Shown piece after piece: positions 5,118-54,621 of a stretch of DNA of 64,000 nucleotides. The notes below the pieces were generated by a model. That model was given only the letters and a program-made list of their open reading frames with translations. It did not search any database and had not been told where the DNA came from. Position 1 is the first letter of the stretch, and each line of letters starts with the position of its first letter. This stretch comes from Candidatus Poribacteria bacterium (GTDB lineage Bacteria; Poribacteria; WGA-4E; GCA-2687025): contig VGLH01000004.1 in NCBI GenBank assembly GCA_016866785.1, positions 3,573 to 67,572 of the forward strand, written 5' to 3'. Both the position numbers and the translations under genes were made by a program.

Positions 5118-5603
5118 GTGACCGAGCCAGAGATCCGCGACCGGTTGGTCGCCCAATGCAGCCAGGGCGCGATTCTCCCTGAAGGCGACGACGCGCTCTC
5201 GGCAACGCCGGTCGAGATACGTGTCCACGCATCGTACCTTGCCGAAGTCGCCAGGGTCTGCCGGGGCGACAGCGAGCTCCATTTCGACTCGCTCATGTGC
5301 CTCTCGGCTCTGGATCGCGGCGACGCGCTCTCCGTCGTCTACCATCTGCACTCGATGTCGTTGCGCCACAGAGCCGCGCTACGCGTGGACCTGCCTCGGG
5401 CGAACCCGGTCGTCGAGACGGTCTGTGGCGTGTGGCGGACGGCGGAATGGCACGAGCGCGAGGCGTACGACATGCTGGGCGTGCGATTCGAGGGACACCC
5501 CGATCTGCGCCGAATCCTGCTGCCGAACGACTGGGTGGGCTACCCACTGCGCAAGGACTACGAGACGCCCACGTTCTATCGCGGCATGAAGGTTCCGTAC
5601 TGA
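5118..5603 (+). CDS. nuoC: NADH-quinone oxidoreductase subunit C
   Basis: WRTAEWHEREAYDMLGVRFEGHPDLRRILLP motif. Probable GTG start at 5118, after the nuoB stop. Confidence 0.9.
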   Translation: MTEPEIRDRLVAQCSQGAILPEGDDALSATPVEIRVHASYLAEVARVCRGDSELHFDSLMCLSALDRGDALSVVYHLHSMSLRHRAALRVDLPRANPVVETVCGVWRTAEWHEREAYDMLGVRFEGHPDLRRILLPNDWVGYPLRKDYETPTFYRGMKVPY

Positions 5604-5613
5604 GGAGCGCGCG

Positions 5614-6765
5614 ATGCGCCAGGCGGTTGCCCGGGAGCTTCGCTCCGACGAGATGATCATCAACATGGGCCCGCAGCACCCGAGCACTCACGGCGTGCTG
5701 CGTCTGGAGCTCAAGGCGGATGGCGAGATCGTCGAGGAAGCGATCCCACACATCGGGTACCTGCATCGCGACTTTGAGAAGCACGCCGAGAAGCTGCCCT
5801 ATCCGCAGATCATCCCGTACACCGACCGCATGGACTACATCGCGGCGATGAACAACGAACTGGGCTTCTGCCTCGCCGTGGAAGCCCTCTTCGAGAGGGG
5901 CGGCAAGCCCATCGAAATCCCGGAGAAGGGGCAGTACATCCGCGTCATCGTCGCGGAGCTGAACCGGATAGCGAGCCATCTGCTCGCGTTCGGCACGTAC
6001 GGCATGGACATCGGCGCGTTCACTCCCTTCCTCTATGCGTTCCGTGATCGCGAGCAGGTCCTCGGTCTGTTCGAGGAGGTTTCCGGGGCGCGGCTGCTAT
6101 ACAACTACATCAGGATCGGCGGCGTGGCGCGCGACCTCACGCCGGACTTCCATCACAAGACCAGACGGTTCCTCGACTACTTCGAGCCGCAGATCGACAC
6201 CTACAACGACCTCTTGTCCAAGAACAAGGTATTCCTTGAGAGGACACGCGGCGTCGCGGTGATGAGCGCGGAGCAGGCGATCTCCTACGGCTGGACGGGC
6301 CCCAACCTGCGGGGTTCCGGCGTCAAGTGGGACTTGAGGAAAGACGAACCCTACGGCATCTACGACCGGTTCGAGTTCGACGTGCCGGTGGGCGAGACGG
6401 GCGACTGCTGGGATCGGTACTTCGTCCGCATGGAGGAGTTCCGACAGAGCGTGCGAATCGTTCGCCAAGCGCTGCATCAGATGGAGTCCTCCGGGCTCCT
6501 GCAGTCTGATGAAATCATGGGCAAGGTTCGCGGGACGATCCGTCCGCCGGCTGGAGTCGTCTACTCCCGAACGGAGGCGCCACGTGGCGATCTGGGGTTC
6601 TACATCGTGTGCGACGGAACCGAGTACCCCCAGCGCCTAAAGGTGCGTTCCCCCTGCTTCACGGCGCTGAGCGCCATGCAGGAATTGAGCCGGGGACTGA
6701 TGGTCGCCGACATGATCGCGATCATCGGCAGCATCGACATCGTCATGGGCGAAGTGGACCGCTAG
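5614..6765 (+). CDS. nuoD: NADH-quinone oxidoreductase subunit D
   Basis: INMGPQHPSTHGVLRL, GYLHRDFEKH and the C-terminal SIDIVMGEVDR are hallmark NuoD motifs. Confidence 0.95.
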   Translation: MRQAVARELRSDEMIINMGPQHPSTHGVLRLELKADGEIVEEAIPHIGYLHRDFEKHAEKLPYPQIIPYTDRMDYIAAMNNELGFCLAVEALFERGGKPIEIPEKGQYIRVIVAELNRIASHLLAFGTYGMDIGAFTPFLYAFRDREQVLGLFEEVSGARLLYNYIRIGGVARDLTPDFHHKTRRFLDYFEPQIDTYNDLLSKNKVFLERTRGVAVMSAEQAISYGWTGPNLRGSGVKWDLRKDEPYGIYDRFEFDVPVGETGDCWDRYFVRMEEFRQSVRIVRQALHQMESSGLLQSDEIMGKVRGTIRPPAGVVYSRTEAPRGDLGFYIVCDGTEYPQRLKVRSPCFTALSAMQELSRGLMVADMIAIIGSIDIVMGEVDR

Positions 6766-8037: not shown

Positions 8038-9012
8038 ATGTCATCCGTCATCTTCTACGGCTTCGCGTTCTTGGCAATCGTCACGGCTCTCGTGGTCGTG
8101 ACGTCGCGGAACGTCGTTCATTCGGCGTTCGCGCTGATGGTCACCTTGTTCTGCGTCGCCGCCTTCTATGTGTATCTGGACGCCGACTTCCTCGCGGCGA
8201 TCCAGCTCATCGTGTATGTGGGCGGAATCCTCGTGCTGGTTCTCTTCGGCGTGATGATGACCAGCGGCAGACTCGACATGAAGCTGCGCGCAGACGCCGG
8301 GCTCATCGCCCCAGCCGTGATCGTCGGCTTGCTGCTGATGGGGCTGCTCCTGTACGTCGCGCGCTCCGATTCGGCGTGGAAGCGCCAGATTCTGGTCGAG
8401 GACGCGTCCCAGCAGGCGGCTTCCCACATTGCCGAACAAGCCAAGTCTCACACGGAGCTGAAGGCGGTCAGAACGACTCCGGTCGTGCGGCGGTTCACCG
8501 CGTCCTACAGTTTTTCCGAAGCGCCGGACGCATCGGCGCGCCAGATGCTGTCACGGCACGTCGAGGACACCATCCGCAAGACCGGGCTGACGCGGCTCTA
8601 CGTCACGAGCGTCCGATCTGGTCGCGGCTCGGATCGACGGATCGAGGTCGCCGTCGAGAAGCGGCGCACCACGCTCATGGACCCGACGCGCAATCTGTCT
8701 GCCGAAGAGCTGGATGCGATGACTCAGGCTCTGACTTCGGTGATCCCCGGCTTCGTGCCTGAGTCGGTCCAAGTCGTCATTGCGGTGGAACCGGTTCACA
8801 TGCTCCTCATCGAGGGCGTGACCGACCAAGCGGTGTCGCGCCTGACCGAAGACATGGGCTTGCGTGTCGTGGAGGACGAGAAGGGCGTCGTCGGTCTGGG
8901 CGACAGCGTGATGATGGGCGAGTACCTGTTGCCGTTCGAGGTGACGGGTCTCCTCCTGCTGGTCGCTCTGATCGGAGCCGCCGTGATCTCGCGGAAAGGG
9001 GTCGTCGTCTGA
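8038..9012 (+). CDS. nuoJ: NADH-quinone oxidoreductase subunit J with an enlarged loop between predicted TM4 and TM5
   Basis: N-terminal TM1-3 region (FLAAIQLIVYVGGILVLVLFGVMM) and C-terminal YLLPFEVTGLLLLVALIGA are NuoJ-like. 324 aa. Confidence 0.85.
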   Translation: MSSVIFYGFAFLAIVTALVVVTSRNVVHSAFALMVTLFCVAAFYVYLDADFLAAIQLIVYVGGILVLVLFGVMMTSGRLDMKLRADAGLIAPAVIVGLLLMGLLLYVARSDSAWKRQILVEDASQQAASHIAEQAKSHTELKAVRTTPVVRRFTASYSFSEAPDASARQMLSRHVEDTIRKTGLTRLYVTSVRSGRGSDRRIEVAVEKRRTTLMDPTRNLSAEELDAMTQALTSVIPGFVPESVQVVIAVEPVHMLLIEGVTDQAVSRLTEDMGLRVVEDEKGVVGLGDSVMMGEYLLPFEVTGLLLLVALIGAAVISRKGVVV

Positions 9013-29453: not shown

Positions 29454-30560
29454 TCACGCGGTCCGAATGGGGTAGGCCCCGTGTTCGTGGCAGGCTTCGT
29501 AGAACGCCAGGATGTTCGCCAGCGGCGTCGCCGGGACGATCTCTGACGACGACCCGATGAACAGACCGCCACCCGGAGCCCCGACGCGCATGGAATGACG
29601 CACCTCGCGACGGATGTCATCCGGGGTTCCCAGCGGAAGGAGCTGCGAGCAATCGATGCCTCCCACGAGCAGGAGATCGTGCCCGTAGCGCTTGCGCAGG
29701 CGCTCGATGGTCATCTCGGCGATGGGCTCGATCGGGTTGATCCCGTCGATGCCAGCATCGACCAGGTCGTCCATGATGCCCCACAGGTTCCCGTCTGAGT
29801 GGTAGACGACCTTGATTCCCCCGGCGTGGCACTCATCGACGCACTGCCTGAGCAGCGGGATGAAGGTTCTCCGAAGGAACTCCGGCGAGAACAGCAGACC
29901 GGCTTTGTAGGCGATGTCATCACCGATGAAGTAGATGGGCCCGAGCTGTTCCTCCGCAGCCACCTGCGCGCACCGGCGGCCGCCTTCGCCGAACAGCTCG
30001 AGGAGGCGATCCAGCTCCTGGGGCTCGTCGTAGATCCAATATGAAAAGCGCTCTTGGCTCATCAGCCCGTAGACGGCGTGGAAGCCGCAACCCCCACCGG
30101 GCACGTACATCGTCTTCGGTGCGAAGCGCTGCTGCTGAGCGCGGATTCCGGCAGTCCAGCTCGTGCGAAGTGATTCCACCGTTGGCGGCTCGTATCGGTA
30201 CGCTCGAAGCTCTTCGACCGTCTGAATGGCATAGCGGGTTACCCAACTCGTTCTGCCCGATATCTTGTGCGACGTGCTCGCCTCGCCTTCGCGCTCTTCC
30301 GCGAACGAACCTCCGTACCCACGGCAGAGATCGATGCCCAGCTCGTGGTAGGCGCGAACCATCGTCGCGTGGTAGTCATCGTCGCCTCTCGCGAAGTGCT
30401 CGACGACGTGCCGATTGTCGATGTAGTCCCAGATGGGGACCCGATCCGGCTCCTGGTGGTTCATCGCCAGTCGGATGCGGTCCCAAACGGCTCGGTCGAG
30501 CTCCGCGCCATAGCCCTCGGTGGGTTTCACACGATCCGCCGCGCCAGCGCTGTTCGACAT
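29454..30560 (-). CDS. Uroporphyrinogen decarboxylase (URO-D/MtaA-like) family protein, paralog 2
   Basis: PDRVPIWDY N-terminal motif and VVYHSDGNLWGIMDDLVDAGIDGINPIEP C-terminal motif, typical of the non-HemE URO-D family. Confidence 0.7.
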   Translation of the reverse strand: MSNSAGAADRVKPTEGYGAELDRAVWDRIRLAMNHQEPDRVPIWDYIDNRHVVEHFARGDDDYHATMVRAYHELGIDLCRGYGGSFAEEREGEASTSHKISGRTSWVTRYAIQTVEELRAYRYEPPTVESLRTSWTAGIRAQQQRFAPKTMYVPGGGCGFHAVYGLMSQERFSYWIYDEPQELDRLLELFGEGGRRCAQVAAEEQLGPIYFIGDDIAYKAGLLFSPEFLRRTFIPLLRQCVDECHAGGIKVVYHSDGNLWGIMDDLVDAGIDGINPIEPIAEMTIERLRKRYGHDLLLVGGIDCSQLLPLGTPDDIRREVRHSMRVGAPGGGLFIGSSSEIVPATPLANILAFYEACHEHGAYPIRTA

Positions 30561-41032: not shown

Positions 41033-42181
41033 ATGACTTCGTACGAGCGCATCATGCGTCAGGCGCACTTCCAGCCGGTCGACCGCATACCGCTGCTAGC
41101 CGGTTGGATCAACGGCGCCGTGCACCTTCAGGAGCTCGGTGGAACGACGGAGGACGAGTTCTGGAAGGACCCATGGACAGGGGCGCTGAAGGCGTACAGG
41201 AACCTGGGCGCCGACGGAATGTTGGGTCACATCGTGCCGCGCGGACAGGACACGATCCGACAGAGCTACATCCTAGAACGCGACCAGACGAACCATTCGG
41301 TCGATGAGGTGCTTGCCTTCGCCGAATCGCGTCCGACGGACGACGAGATTCTGGCGCGGTTCGACGCGGACGCGTACGCAAAGGAACTGCGAACGCACCT
41401 GGAAACCACGCAGGCGCGGTACGGAGACGTGCAGTACCTGCCAGCCCGGTGGGACTGCTCGGCGACCTTTGGCTGGTACGGCACGTTTGGCTACACGGCG
41501 TACTACGAAGCGGTCGCTCTGCATCCTGAGGCGTTCGACCGCATCTACCGCGCCAGCGCCGTCGCGGCGCGGGCCCGGAACGAAGTGATTGCGCGCGTCT
41601 ACTCGGCGCTGAAACGTCCGCCGCTCATCATGACCGGCGACGATATCTGTGACAACAACGGGCCCATGGTGTCGCCGCGATTCCTTCGCAAGCACTACTT
41701 CCCGTGGCTGAAGTACTCGCTGGAGCCGTTGCACCAAGGCGGTATCAAGACGATCTGCCACTGTGACGGCAACGTGATGCCGATCATGGATGACATCCTC
41801 GCGTGCGGGTTCTGCGGGCTCCAGGGGTTCCAGGAAGAGCTCGGCGTCCACATCTCCGACCTGGTGAAGCTTCGTACCGCGACGGGAGACCGACTGCTGC
41901 TGTTCGCGGGCATGTCCGTCACGCGGACGCTGCCTTGGGGTTCCGTCCAGGATGTCGAGGAGGACGTCGCCTACGCGATCGACGTCACGGAGGGCGGCAA
42001 GGGGCTCTTCCTCTTCTCGGCGAACGTCATCAATCCCGAAGTTCCTACGGACAACATCCGTGCGGCGTACCGACATGCCGCCCAATACTCGACCGGTTTC
42101 AGCACGCCCGTTCAAGAGCGGCGAACCGAGTGGCCCTTCGGCGTCAAGACGGGAGAACTGATCGGTGCCCGAGTCTTCTGA
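41033..42181 (+). CDS. Uroporphyrinogen decarboxylase (URO-D/MtaA-like) family protein, paralog 3
   Basis: FQPVDRIPLLAGW N-terminus and ICHCDGNVMPIMDDILACGFCGLQGFQ core. GGAGG precedes the ATG. Confidence 0.7.
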   Translation: MTSYERIMRQAHFQPVDRIPLLAGWINGAVHLQELGGTTEDEFWKDPWTGALKAYRNLGADGMLGHIVPRGQDTIRQSYILERDQTNHSVDEVLAFAESRPTDDEILARFDADAYAKELRTHLETTQARYGDVQYLPARWDCSATFGWYGTFGYTAYYEAVALHPEAFDRIYRASAVAARARNEVIARVYSALKRPPLIMTGDDICDNNGPMVSPRFLRKHYFPWLKYSLEPLHQGGIKTICHCDGNVMPIMDDILACGFCGLQGFQEELGVHISDLVKLRTATGDRLLLFAGMSVTRTLPWGSVQDVEEDVAYAIDVTEGGKGLFLFSANVINPEVPTDNIRAAYRHAAQYSTGFSTPVQERRTEWPFGVKTGELIGARVF

Positions 42182-43241
42182 GGCGCAGCTTCCCGACATT
42201 GGCAAGATATCACCGGACGTGTTCGAGACGCTCATCAAGCCGCGTCTGGGCAGGAAACGCGCGGATGTCTTGGTTCCGCCCAAGAGCGGCGTCGACGTCG
42301 GCGTCATCGACATCGGCGGCGGTCGCGTGATGGCGATGTCGACCGACCCCGTCTTCATTGTGCCGCAGTACGGATGGGAGCGCGCCGCGTGGTTCGCGAT
42401 CCACATCCTCATGTCCGACGTCGCGACGAGCGGTCTCGCGCCGACCCACCTGACCATCGACCTGAACCTGCCGGTTTCCATGGATGCCGCCGCTCTCGGA
42501 ACGGTCTGGGAGACGATCCACCGGGAGTGCGACCGATATGGCGTCGCCGTCGTCACGGGACATACCGCGCGCTACGACGGTTGCGACTACCCGATGGTCG
42601 GCGGCGCGACCGTCATGGCGATTGGCGATGCGGACCGATACGTGACTCCTGAAATGGCGCGCCCAGGCGACGCCGTTATCGTCACGAAGGGTCCCGCCAT
42701 CGAAGCCGCTGGCTTGTTCGCCGCCACGTTCCCGGATCGCGTCTCCCGCGCGTTCGGCGAGGACGCCGCGCGGCGCTGCGAGGAGCTCTTCTGGCAAATG
42801 ACGGTCGTGGACGACGCGCTGACGGCGGCGCAGGTCGGTGTGCGAGACGACGGCGTGACGGCGATGCACGACGCGACGGAATGCGGTCTGTGGGGTGGCA
42901 TCGTCGAGGTCGCGCAGGCGAGCGACGTCGGGATGCGGATCGACCAGAGCGCTATCCCGCTGAACCAGGATGCCGTTCGGCTGTGCGAGCTGTTCGGGGT
43001 CGATCCCTTCCCGGCGATCAGCGAGGGCACGCTCGTGATGACGTGCTGCCCCCACCGAACCGAGGCGGTCCTGTCGGCGCTCAAGGGCGCTGGCATCGTC
43101 GCCGCGCAGATCGGCGAGGTCGTCGAGGAACCGTCGTGCCAGCTCCTGTCCGAAGGCGCATGGCGTGAGCTGGCGCATCCGCGCGTCGACCCGTTCTGGC
43201 GCGCGTTTGCCGATGCGCTCGCAGGGGAGCCCAGCGACTGA
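42165..43241 (+). CDS. AIR-synthase-related (PurM/HypE/SelD-superfamily) protein; not a canonical SelD
   Basis: GVDVGVIDIGGGRVMAMSTDPVF and VVTGHTARYDG motifs of the PurM superfamily. GTG start overlaps the preceding URO-D gene by 17 nt. Lacks the SelD GxGCK-type N-terminal motif. Confidence 0.75.
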   Translation: MPESSEAQLPDIGKISPDVFETLIKPRLGRKRADVLVPPKSGVDVGVIDIGGGRVMAMSTDPVFIVPQYGWERAAWFAIHILMSDVATSGLAPTHLTIDLNLPVSMDAAALGTVWETIHRECDRYGVAVVTGHTARYDGCDYPMVGGATVMAIGDADRYVTPEMARPGDAVIVTKGPAIEAAGLFAATFPDRVSRAFGEDAARRCEELFWQMTVVDDALTAAQVGVRDDGVTAMHDATECGLWGGIVEVAQASDVGMRIDQSAIPLNQDAVRLCELFGVDPFPAISEGTLVMTCCPHRTEAVLSALKGAGIVAAQIGEVVEEPSCQLLSEGAWRELAHPRVDPFWRAFADALAGEPSD

Positions 43242-43260: not shown

Positions 43261-44058
43261 ATGACGGGGATCCGGCTGCTCTATCGCCGGTGGCGGAACC
43301 AGCACGTGGCTCGCTGGTACACCCGCGATCCGGATCGCCTGAAGCGCTGGATCGCGGAAGCCAGGCTAGAGACGCTGCCAGCTCCAGCCATCGTTCCGAT
43401 ACGGAAGCCACTGTCTGAGTGCTGCATCGCACTCATCACGACCGGCGGCTTTCACTTGGGTTCCGACCCACCGTTCAACATGGCGCGCCCGGAAGGCGAT
43501 CCGTCGCTGCGCCGAATCCCAATCGACGCGCCGCGAAGCAGCGTGCTCGTGACGCACGACTACTACGATCACCGCGACGCGGAGCTCGACATCAACGTCG
43601 TGCTCCCGATTGACTGACTCGCCGAGCTCGTCGCCGAAAGAATCGTCGGCTCACTGCATCCGGTCGCGTACAGCCTGATGGGGCACATCACCGGCGGCTG
43701 CGTGGACGCGCTCGTATCGGATACGGCTCCTGCCATCGTGGATGAGCTCCATCGTGGAGAAGTCGACATCGCGCTTCTGACCCCCGCCTGAGGCATCTGC
43801 CACCAGTCCGTGGGACTGGTTCAGCGAGCCGTGGAGGAGTCGGGGATCCGCACGGTGTCGATCACCATGAGCGCCGAGATGACCGCCCACGTGCAGCCGC
43901 CTCGTGCGCTGCTGGTCGATTTCCCGCTGGGACATCCGATGGGCAGACCGAACGATCCCGATATGGGCAGCCGCGTACTCCGAGAGGCGCTGGAGGTTCT
44001 CACGAACCCGGAGCACGACGGTCGGATCGTACGCAGCTCTATCTGGTACGCCAGCTAG
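43261..44058 (+). CDS. Glycine/sarcosine/betaine/D-proline reductase selenoprotein-B-family (GrdB/PrdB-like) protein; single frame with two in-frame TGA codons (43615..43617 and 43789..43791). Candidate selenoprotein or pseudogene
   Basis: One continuous frame reads MTGIRLLYRR..ALITTGGFHLGSDPPF..THDYYDHRDAELDINVVLPID-TGA-LAELVAERIVGSLHPVAYSLMGHITGG..DIALLTPA-TGA-GICHQSVGLVQRAVEESGIRTVSI..FPLGHPMGRP..TAG. The ORF track splits it into 43165..43617 and 43810..44058. Confidence 0.55.
43802..43820 (+). promoter_or_regulatory. SECIS-like hairpin downstream of the in-frame TGA at 43789
   Basis: Perfect 8-bp stem ACCAGTCC / GGACTGGT with GTG loop. The stem starts 10 nt after the TGA. Confidence 0.5.
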
Positions 44059-44126
44059 CTGCGGGAGACCAAAGAGCCGCTCGAGCGCGACAGCCGCGAT
44101 GCGATCCGCGCCCGAGCGACACACTC

Positions 44127-44151
44127 TTGCCGATGGGGTCGGCATCGGCAA
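44127..44151 (+). terminator. Stem-loop downstream of the GrdB-like gene (possible terminator; no clean T-tract)
   Basis: TTGCCGATG-GGGTCGG-CATCGGCAA, 9-bp perfect stem, followed by TAGTGTTG. Confidence 0.3.
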
Positions 44152-44237
44152 TAGTGTTGCGGAGGACATTGCTGACGTATGAGTCACTCGCGTGGCTCCG
44201 TCAAGCGCGGAACGGGATCGGCGCAAGGAGAAAGCTG

Positions 44238-52556: not shown

Positions 52557-53615
52557 TCATGTCCAGCCGAGGTCGTACGCCGTCTCGTACATCGCCACGA
52601 TGTTCTCGGCGGGGCTGACGACCTGGATGTTGTGACAGGGCCCCAAGATGTACCCGCCGCCCTCGCCGAGGATCGACAGGTTCTCCTCGACTTCGCGCCG
52701 CACGTCTCCGACGGACCCGAAGACCAGCGTCTGCTGGTTGTCCACGCCTCCGTGGAACACGACGTCCTTGCCGAAGTCGCGCTTGAGCGCGCGCCGTGCC
52801 ATCCCCCTGCAACGCCACTGGATCGGGTTCAGCAGGTCGATGCCGATCTCGATCATGCGAGGAAGAATGTCGCGCACGGCTCCGTCGTTGTGGTGGAACA
52901 CGTACACGCCCGCGCTGTGCGCCAGGTCGATCATCCGCTTCATGCGCGGGATCAGAAACTCCTCGAGGAGAGCCGGGGAGCACATCAAGCCCTCCTGAGC
53001 TCCCATGTCCTCGGCGACGTAGCTGAAGTCAACCTTGCCCGGAAGCTGCTCGTAGATGCGAGCCGTGTTCTCATAGGCAAGGTCGAAGAGCTTGTCGAGG
53101 CAGTAGTGGACGATCTCGGGGTTCTCGATCAGGTCGATGAACGCCTGCTCCTGGCCCCTCAGGTTCTTGTAGACCAGGAACGGCTCGGATCCCCCGCCAC
53201 GGATAGGATGTTTACCCAGAGACGCAGCCTGCTCTTTGAGGTGGGATACGTCGTACCAATCCGGGCTGGGCCACTGGAAGTTCGCCTCGATCTCCTCGAC
53301 GGACGAGTACTGCGCCAACGGGTTGTGGATGCACTCGGAGTACGCTCCGCCGTCGTGCTCGACCGTTCGGTATCGACACCCGTAGATATCTTCGCCTGGC
53401 GGGCTCGCGGGTCCCGTGTAGTGAGGTCCGACGCCGTCGATGCGGTCGATGTGCAATCGCTCGAACATCTCCGTGGTCGTGGCGCATCCCATGTGGGCTA
53501 GGAGCTTCCGTGTCGCCTCGCCGGTCGCCCAATAGTCGAGCGGCACGCGGTCGGGCTTCTCGCGGCGCATCACGGCGAGCCATCGTTCGCGGGGAGTCAT
53601 CGTCTCCGTGGGCAT
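52557..53615 (-). CDS. Uroporphyrinogen decarboxylase (URO-D/MtaA-like) family protein, paralog 4
   Basis: EKPDRVPLDYW N-terminus and VFHHNDGAVRDILPRMIEIGIDLLNPIQ core. I prefer ATG 53615, 8 nt after AGGAAGGA. Confidence 0.75.
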   Translation of the reverse strand: MPTETMTPRERWLAVMRREKPDRVPLDYWATGEATRKLLAHMGCATTTEMFERLHIDRIDGVGPHYTGPASPPGEDIYGCRYRTVEHDGGAYSECIHNPLAQYSSVEEIEANFQWPSPDWYDVSHLKEQAASLGKHPIRGGGSEPFLVYKNLRGQEQAFIDLIENPEIVHYCLDKLFDLAYENTARIYEQLPGKVDFSYVAEDMGAQEGLMCSPALLEEFLIPRMKRMIDLAHSAGVYVFHHNDGAVRDILPRMIEIGIDLLNPIQWRCRGMARRALKRDFGKDVVFHGGVDNQQTLVFGSVGDVRREVEENLSILGEGGGYILGPCHNIQVVSPAENIVAMYETAYDLGWT

Positions 53616-53781
53616 TGGCATGTCCTTCCTCATCGGTTCGGGTGCGTGGATGCTCGGATGTCGCCGAAGTCGCGCCGGCAGGCTCATCTCCTCAGACGTC
53701 GCGCCGCGCTTGTGCGCTCCGGCATCGTGTGGCAGATAACTCATGAACCACCGGAGCCCCGCACGAACCGAGGACATGACC

Positions 53782-54621
53782 ATGCCGACAGCGCGCGTCG
53801 TCGAAGAGGACCTCCGCTACAAGTTTCTGGCGGACGGCCGGCTCGCCCTCGCCTACAACAAGGGTCACCTGTCGTGGGGCGACTTCTACCTGTCGCGGCC
53901 CAACTTCTTTCCGGTCTACTCTCCCAGCGGCAGAGCCGTCACGACGAACTGCGCCTACCGGTTCAACCACCATAAGAGCATCTTCATCGGCCACGCGCGA
54001 GTCAACGGGGTCAACTTCTTCCACGATAACAACCCGACGAACCCGAGCCTCGGAGATATCCGGTTCGAGTCGGGCGTCGTCGATGAGCAGGGCACTCGCG
54101 TTCGCCTTCGGACGACGAACTCGTGGGTCGCCAAGAGCGGCGAGCAGATGCTGGACGAGGAACGCGAGATCGTGTGGACGCCCAGTGAACGCGTCCACGT
54201 GCTGGACATATCGAGCGCTCTGACCTCACGCGTCGGCGAGATCACGTTTGGCAAGGACACGCACTCCTACATCGGCATCCGCGTTGCGGATACGATCGAT
54301 GTCGAAGACGGCGGGAGAGCCGTCAACTCGGCTGGACAGGTGAACGAAGCCGAGGCGATGAACCAGTTCGCCGACTGGGTCGACTATTCCGGGGACGTCG
54401 CCGGTCAGACGGTTGGGATCGCGCTGATGCACCATCCCGACAATCCGCCGTCGCCGTACTTCGTCCGGGACTACGGGACGTTCCTGTCGAACTTCACTTT
54501 GCGCGAGCCCTACGTGCTTCCGGATGGCGGTCGCCTGGTCCAGCGCTTCCGTATTCTGGTCCACGAGGGACCAACGAACGAGGTGGACATCGGTTCCTAC
54601 CGTGAGGCGTTCGTCGGCTGA
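53782..54621 (+). CDS. PmoA-family / DUF6807 protein, paralog 2
   Basis: NFFPVYSPSG, FNHHKSIFIGHARVNGVNFFHD, FGKDTHSYIGIRV, DWVDYSG and YFVRDYG motifs parallel to paralog 1. Confidence 0.7.
   Translation: MPTARVVEEDLRYKFLADGRLALAYNKGHLSWGDFYLSRPNFFPVYSPSGRAVTTNCAYRFNHHKSIFIGHARVNGVNFFHDNNPTNPSLGDIRFESGVVDEQGTRVRLRTTNSWVAKSGEQMLDEEREIVWTPSERVHVLDISSALTSRVGEITFGKDTHSYIGIRVADTIDVEDGGRAVNSAGQVNEAEAMNQFADWVDYSGDVAGQTVGIALMHHPDNPPSPYFVRDYGTFLSNFTLREPYVLPDGGRLVQRFRILVHEGPTNEVDIGSYREAFVG

Follow-up and report, generated by a model that had tools for sequence, protein, structure and literature searches.

A selenoprotein family named "proline reductase PrdB" (pfam07355), in which selenocysteine (Sec, U) lies in a UxxC motif, has been catalogued from environmental sequences since 2005 (PMC1088965; for the motif, see PMC2398784, Table 2, and PMC1088965, Table 3). 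In the Sargasso Sea, PrdB ranked third in abundance among selenoprotein families, its Sec forms numbering 42 against a single cysteine (Cys) form (PMC1088965), and it was among the top families of the Global Ocean Sampling (GOS) survey, with 235 Sec and 110 Cys forms (PMC2398784). The family is also listed for the Deltaproteobacteria Anaeromyxobacter and Geobacter uraniumreducens, and remnants of the Sec insertion sequence (SECIS) after Sec loss, i.e., in Sec-to-Cys conversions, have been documented (PMC1794560). The present analysis concerns a PrdB-like gene in a 64,000-nucleotide (nt) stretch of a Candidatus Poribacteria genome (GenBank assembly GCA_016866785.1, contig VGLH01000004.1); this whole stretch is referred to as the window. 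The gene retains its predicted Sec codon and SECIS, while its frame is interrupted upstream by another TGA. Comparison with its homologs suggests that it is probably a recently pseudogenised selenoprotein gene.

A PrdB-like Gene with Two In-frame TGA Codons

The locus comprises the following features:

43261-44058, forward strand: PrdB-like (GRDB family) selenoprotein gene of 265 codons, from ATG 43261 to TAG 44056-44058, with two in-frame TGAs
43615-43617, forward strand: first TGA, an upstream in-frame stop replacing the near-invariant Arg of a P-x-D-R-L motif (based on alignment and independent contigs)
43789-43791, forward strand: second TGA, predicted to be the conserved Sec codon of the family (based on the TGA column in homologs)
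43789-43800, forward strand: U-G-I-C redox motif (UxxC; based on alignment and the published family motif)
43802-43820, forward strand: predicted SECIS hairpin with an 8-base-pair (bp) stem, ACCAGTCC/GGACTGGT, and a GUG apical loop at 43810-43812 (based on conservation and covariation)

An earlier reading of this DNA, made from the letters alone (the sequence-only reading), had flagged the second TGA as a candidate Sec codon and had placed the protein in the GrdB/PrdB family. The family assignment is upheld by profile searches: the window protein matches Pfam GRDB (PF07355) with 32.1 bits (cut-off 22, E = 9.6e-8), and among NCBIfam models it scores best on TIGR04483 (D-proline reductase PrdB), with 172.9 bits over residues 39-258. 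The latter score does not reach the equivalog cut-off of 300 bits, and no PrdA partner was found in the window, so the gene is not an equivalog of clostridial PrdB. Scores on the GrdB-type models TIGR01917 and TIGR01918 are 39-51 bits, far under their cut-offs; for TIGR01918, the glycine/betaine/sarcosine/D-proline reductase selenoprotein B subfamily, the score is 48.5 bits against a cut-off of 65.45. On sequence grounds, the gene is thus placed in the GrdB/PrdB selenoprotein family as a PrdB-like, stand-alone member. It belongs to the "proline reductase PrdB" family that is already catalogued, and does not represent a new one.

Relatives of the gene are widespread. A search of 5.8 billion proteins returned 49, all with at most 55% identity to the window protein, and a scan of species-representative genomes (one per species) yielded 257, from taxa that include Methylomirabilota, Poribacteria, Binatia, Nitrospinota, Tectomicrobia, Acidobacteriota and many Deltaproteobacteria; 190 further relatives came from a metagenome scan. 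For the locus search, alignment A2 was used in place of A1, which was too divergent. Most of the database homologs are gene calls of about 170 amino acids (aa) that stop exactly at ..LLTPA, the residue preceding the flagged TGA, and the window locus itself is cut by gene callers into fragments of 118 aa and 75 aa. A sequence search of the PDB found no significant relative of the window protein, and a Foldseek search of the PDB with a confident AlphaFold model found no significant fold match.

The Predicted Selenocysteine Codon and Its SECIS

At the second TGA, the frame reads ..DIALLTPA-TGA-GICHQSVGLVQRAVEESGIRTVSI.. and meets no further stop until TAG 44056-44058. The sequence-only reading had described this as a protein-like open frame, which holds for the part downstream of the flagged codon, where protein conservation in homologs extends for about 85 residues and the SVGL..PPR..GHP motifs are kept. 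It had overlooked the TGA at 43615-43617, however, and the frame is not open back to ATG 43261. The alignment that it had proposed as a check of the Sec/Cys column gave a clear outcome: the aligned codon is TGA in all of the best 80 genome loci (80/80) and in 157 of 158 scored loci overall (genomes and metagenomes), the lone exception being TCG, and the full-length homologs P0005 and P0007 have Cys at this position. Two other full-length database proteins, P0001 and P0002, show "W" and "R" in the same column. The "W" of P0001 was rejected as a genuine Trp, as its source had translated a TGA as Trp; the "R" of P0002 is a genuine CGA. Across homologs, the local motif is P-[AGT]-U-G-x-C-[NH]-[QR]-S-V-G-L, and the U/C-x-x-C context that the sequence-only reading had named for the family, here U-G-x-C, is the published UxxC motif (PMC2398784). 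In an alignment of 139 distinct sequences, which runs from 3 nt ahead of the TGA to 45 nt behind it and is free of gaps, columns T4 G5 A6 G7 G8 as well as T13 G14 are invariant, TG(C/T) being the Cys codon of the motif.

Bacterial SECIS elements are stem-loops directly 3' of the UGA, with a small, G(U)-containing loop about 16-37 nt from it (the bSECISearch rule). In Sec-decoding bacteria, SelB-GTP together with Sec-tRNA(Sec) binds the loop just 3' of the UGA, and it is a GU in the apical loop that SelB recognises. The hairpin in the window agrees with this description in its position 3' of the UGA, its loop distance and its G(U) loop. A 10-nt spacer, GGCATCTGCC (43792-43801), separates the TGA from a perfect 8-bp stem with arms at 43802-43809 (ACCAGTCC) and 43813-43820 (GGACTGGT), and the GUG loop begins 18 nt past the UGA, all of which lies where the sequence-only reading had put it and within the spacing and loop rules that it had invoked. 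The isolated hairpin has a folding energy of -11.7 kcal/mol. Perfect 8-bp hairpins with loops of 3-10 nt are scarce in the window (just 21 per strand across 64 kb), and such a hairpin stands at SECIS distance from only 0.4-0.5% of all TGA trinucleotides. The surrounding 65-nt region folds unexceptionally when compared to shuffles (z = -0.21; the sequence has 65% GC), and since such a fold does not stand out in GC-rich DNA, the argument from the single sequence is only moderate.

The real support for the SECIS is its conservation in homologs, not single-sequence folding. In the alignment of 139 sequences, the helix of the window (columns 17-24 with 28-35) is paired in 94.5% of cells and lies in register, and the conservation in Sec-containing orthologs on which the earlier prediction depended is accompanied by compensatory changes at three pairs: 18-34 (UA 68, CG 52), 21-31 (GC 106, AU 17, with CAG accompanied by CTG in 106 sequences and CAA by TTG in 17), and 22-30 (UA 87, UG 40, AU 9). 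None of 500 shuffles matched the observed paired fraction or covariation score, and when the 3' arm was slid by 1 to 3 columns as a control, 8-57% of cells were paired. In codon terms, columns 21 and 31 are the third base of Gln/Arg and the first base of Leu (CTG/TTG), respectively, and column 18, the third base of Asn/His, has as its partner the first base of a Val/Ile codon. As the covarying positions are therefore largely synonymous, coding constraint alone does not explain the covariation. An independent prediction by RNAalifold gave this helix as well. The loop opens with G25 and T26, neither of which varies in the 139 homologs; the two bases are also part of a Val codon, and would fit the GU that is recognised by SelB. 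A conserved lower stem (columns 12-15 with 37-40) was considered and rejected, given that only about 28-86% of sequences form its four pairs and that the register shifts from one lineage to another; the SECIS claim is limited to the 8-bp upper stem.

The hairpin is also found at some loci that lack the TGA. Of the Cys-type loci, compared as a control for loss of the hairpin, L164 keeps 6/8 canonical pairs and L165 2-4/8. In L177 (1501-2304) the Sec codon is now CGA (Arg) and in L110 (around 980) it is TCG (Ser), with 8/8 hairpin pairs in both. These two loci represent either fresh inactivating mutations or errors, and they show that TGA and CGA interconvert in the PrdB-like family.

The opposing view would be that the second TGA is an ordinary stop, that the hairpin is due to chance or purely to coding, and that the frame downstream is untranslated. 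This view could draw on the unexceptional 65-nt fold, on the lack of Sec machinery in the window (see below) and on Rfam: Rfam 15 gave no match for the whole window at gathering threshold, and only chance-level matches (E > 2) for 43500-44000 at E up to 10. It is effectively excluded, however, by protein conservation that in all homologs runs on for about 85 residues beyond the TGA, the near-universal retention of the TGA, the existence of Cys homologs, the maintenance of the helix by compensatory changes at synonymous sites, and the published selenoprotein family to which the gene belongs. The second TGA is thus almost certainly the conserved Sec codon of the family, as judged from these comparisons, and the hairpin that follows its SECIS.

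A Stop Codon at a Conserved Arginine

The first TGA is codon 119 of the frame, 174 nt upstream of the second, in the context ..NVVLPID-TGA-LAELV.. It interrupts the frame between ATG 43261 and the Sec codon, so that the locus lacks the uninterrupted frame of a functional selenoprotein gene. In the aligned column, Arg is found in 150 of 160 homologs (94%), and stop, Cys or Sec in none; nor does any of the 160 have another in-frame stop within the domain. The Arg is kept even in Cys-type homologs that are only about 25% identical. It is encoded by CGG, CGT, CGC, AGG, AGA or CGA in homologs, and as CGA is among the codons used, a CGA-to-TGA transition is the simplest origin of the stop. The first TGA is therefore probably a nonsense mutation of the CGA-to-TGA type. 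In this window TGA is an ordinary stop, as the sequence-only reading had pointed out; of the 29 annotated window genes, 16 end in TGA, 13 in TAG and 0 in TAA.

The same single transition would also be all that is needed if the TGA were a sequencing or assembly error, in which case the real gene would have CGA (Arg), as some homologs do, and would be an ordinary intact PrdB-like selenoprotein gene. This explanation is very improbable, as five contigs, assembled independently and drawn from four samples, all have the TGA, namely L081 (SRR16108672), L169 and L171 (SRR16108666), L170 (SRR7985589) and L173 (JGI 3300020221). At other positions they show 0-3 single-nucleotide polymorphisms (SNPs) relative to the window, and some of them do carry such differences. 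Their independent assembly implies that the TGA is a real allele.

A SECIS for the first TGA was sought and rejected: the only hairpin downstream of this TGA (-6.3 kcal/mol) has a 5-bp stem and an 8-nt loop that lacks GU, and its surroundings fold at z = +0.15. Since bacterial SECIS elements have to lie immediately 3' of the UGA that they serve, the hairpin of the second TGA, 187 nt away, cannot serve the first. That the first TGA might nonetheless be a second recoding site without a canonical adjacent SECIS (by Sec insertion, or by programmed readthrough at UGA-C), and not a lesion, is a decidedly doubtful proposition. If it were true, the locus would encode a functional variant enzyme, or its expression would be coupled to selenium or to termination efficiency.

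State of the Gene

What the stop would mean for the protein can be considered on an AlphaFold model of the full-length homolog P0002 (predicted local distance difference test, pLDDT, 90.7; predicted template modelling score, pTM, 0.89), which is a single compact alpha/beta domain. Arg114 of P0002, which corresponds to codon 119 in the window, lies within helix 112-120, near its start. Residue 172, in the Sec column, is situated between strand 165-169 and helix 175-188, a modelled placement that is typical of a redox site. By this model, a 118-aa product would miss four strands and four helices, about half of the domain. Translation would normally end at codon 119, before the Sec codon, and because of the first TGA, ribosomes of this organism may well not get as far as the Sec codon. 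Where they do, SelB-GTP with Sec-tRNA(Sec) would, by the established mechanism, bind the GU-containing apical loop 3' of the UGA and deliver Sec to the ribosome.

Apart from the stop, the window copy departs from the consensus at further conserved positions. Among 55 columns that are at least 90% conserved, it deviates at five, the stop included (P43A, W44I, I97V, R119stop, P253D), while the median homolog deviates at one and only 11 of 160 homologs at five or more. The five deviations would fit relaxed constraint or a divergent branch. They are in keeping with the favoured reading, by which the locus is probably a selenoprotein gene that was pseudogenised recently and has so far kept its Sec codon and SECIS intact.

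Several observations weigh against pseudogenisation. Aside from the first TGA, the frame is intact and free of frameshifts, and the UxxC motif, the SECIS (8/8 pairs) and the PPR and GHP motifs are preserved. With all else intact, the inactivation must be (very) recent, or else the stop is tolerated. UGA-C is the leakiest stop tetranucleotide in E. coli termination, and some readthrough product is possible in view of the UGA-C context here. Moreover, all sequences that bear the allele are at least 99.9% identical, so that its fixation says little about selection in either direction. Finally, no close sister species with a PrdB-like gene was found, the protein search yielding nothing nearer than about 55% identity. 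The nearest relatives of the neighbouring AIR synthase-like (AIRS) gene, L174 (75% identity) and L175 (65%), have no PrdB-like gene downstream.

A rival explanation is that the gene is functional, with the first TGA either read through (by a near-cognate tRNA at the leaky UGA-C) or decoded as another Sec, and the second TGA decoded as Sec, giving a full-length protein with a residue other than Arg at position 119. In favour of such a gene, the rest of the frame is perfectly preserved, as are the UxxC motif and SECIS, the TGA allele is the sole one seen in the four samples, and the local context is GAC-UGA-C. However, nothing resembling a SECIS follows the first TGA (5-bp stem, 8-nt loop without GU, z = +0.15), the hairpin of the second TGA is 187 nt off where a directly adjacent one is needed, and the column that holds Arg in 94% of the 160 homologs holds a stop, Cys or Sec in none of them. 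Since the Arg is conserved down to about 25% identity, Trp or Sec in its place is unlikely to be neutral. Overall, a functional gene of this kind is considered unlikely.

Alternatively, the 118-aa N-terminal polypeptide and a separately initiated C-terminal selenopeptide might together form an active protein. Conserved residues are kept in both halves, and an in-frame ATG is available at 43678 (Met140). No Shine-Dalgarno-like sequence precedes this ATG, though, and a start there would remove residues 120-139 from a single compact domain; the gene is split in none of the 160 homologs. Such a two-part enzyme is hardly credible, and recent pseudogenisation of a formerly complete selenoprotein gene remains the preferred account.

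Genomic Context and Selenocysteine Machinery

Two genes upstream of the PrdB-like gene are listed as context only:

41033-42181, forward strand: URO-D/MtaA-CmuA-like gene, overlapping the AIRS-like gene by 17 nt
42165-43241, forward strand: "AIR synthase family" (PurM-like) gene with Pfam AIRS and AIRS_C domains, ending 20 nt before the start of the PrdB-like gene

A role of the AIRS-like protein as SelD was rejected, as it scores 64.5 bits on the selD model (cut-off 125) and has no N-terminal Cys/Sec motif; it is also under the cut-offs of the ThiL and HypE models. Neither selA, selB and selD nor prdA, prdC and grd genes were found among the 37 open reading frames (ORFs) scanned in the window, and no tRNA, including selC, was found in it. 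PrdA and PrdC partners are also missing from the contexts of three homologs, which are mutually unrelated.

In tblastn searches with five window neighbours, the AIRS-like gene turned up beside a PrdB-like gene at just 6 of about 165 loci, and none of the other neighbours did so at any. With only the AIRS-like gene recurring, and in 6 loci, no functional inference is drawn from the context. In four Syntrophaceae-like loci (L063, L067, L072 and L078), an AIRS/PurM-like gene (about 5164-5940) lies directly upstream of the PrdB-like gene (about 6001), as in the window; these genes are 25-30% identical to that of the window. The adjacency may reflect a weak, lineage-restricted linkage. The nearest relative, L174, has the pair of URO-D-like and AIRS-like genes as well, but there it is followed by a CMD/AhpD-like and not a PrdB-like gene. 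Three paralogous, methyltransferase-like genes of the URO-D/MtaA-CmuA kind are present within the 64 kb, at 29454-30560 (reverse strand), 41033-42181 (forward strand) and 52557-53783 (reverse strand), all of them far under family cut-offs.

Downstream of the PrdB-like gene lies a DUF6807 gene. In L173 (524-757), the intergenic stretch between the PrdB-like stop and the DUF6807 start (44112-44224) is present as a tandem duplication of about 113 bp, which is absent from the window and from the Logan contigs, the population being otherwise 99.9% identical; it is either a structural polymorphism or an assembly difference. Elsewhere in the window, the NuoJ ORF (8038-9012, forward strand) encodes 324 aa, of which only the first 134 or so match NuoJ models (about 170-280 aa), the remainder forming a C-terminal extension. 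The best named relatives of NuoD are from Candidatus Poribacteria (65-73% identity), and metagenomic relatives reach 90%.

Implications

The significance of the locus lies mainly in annotation: gene callers split it, and in nearly all of its relatives they end the gene at the Sec codon. A proper annotation would be that of a PrdB-like selenoprotein gene carrying a premature stop. If pseudogenisation is indeed what happened, the locus offers an early snapshot of the decay of a selenoprotein gene, in which a natural population has become fixed for a nonsense codon before any damage to the Sec codon or the SECIS. The stand-alone PrdB-like family has no PrdA partner and no solved structure.

Comparison with Known Systems

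The closest described system is the PrdB family of Zhang and Gladyshev, with which the window gene shares the Pfam domain, the Sec in UxxC at the same column, and a SECIS with G in a small apical loop directly after the UGA. In both cases, Sec forms far outnumber Cys forms and the hosts are non-clostridial bacteria. The window copy differs from that family by the extra in-frame TGA at a conserved Arg codon and by its divergence, with at most about 55% identity to any database protein and 5 of 55 conserved columns altered.

D-proline reductase PrdB of Clostridium sticklandii and Clostridioides difficile is the best curated model for the window protein, and shares with it the UxxC Sec motif and a similar length. 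In contrast to the clostridial systems, the window score remains under the cut-off of 300, no prdA (for the pyruvoyl proprotein) or prdC was found nearby or among the ORFs scanned, and the neighbours vary between homologs of the window gene; for these reasons, a function as D-proline reductase is unsupported for the window gene. With GrdB, GrdF and GrdH, component B of glycine, sarcosine and betaine reductase, homology extends over the C-terminal 140 or so residues, including the Sec region. GrdB, however, is about 430 aa long and is encoded together with grdA, grdE and grdC, whereas the window protein scores 39-51 bits and no grd genes are among the ORFs scanned.

Genes that have lost Sec and retain SECIS remnants provide the last comparison. 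Within the PrdB-like family, L177 (8/8 pairs), L110 (8/8) and the Cys-type L164 (6/8) keep the hairpin after loss of the TGA, and in the window, too, the SECIS is intact though probably no longer used. The window gene differs from these cases in that its Sec codon is itself intact, and the putative lesion is a nonsense codon upstream of it.

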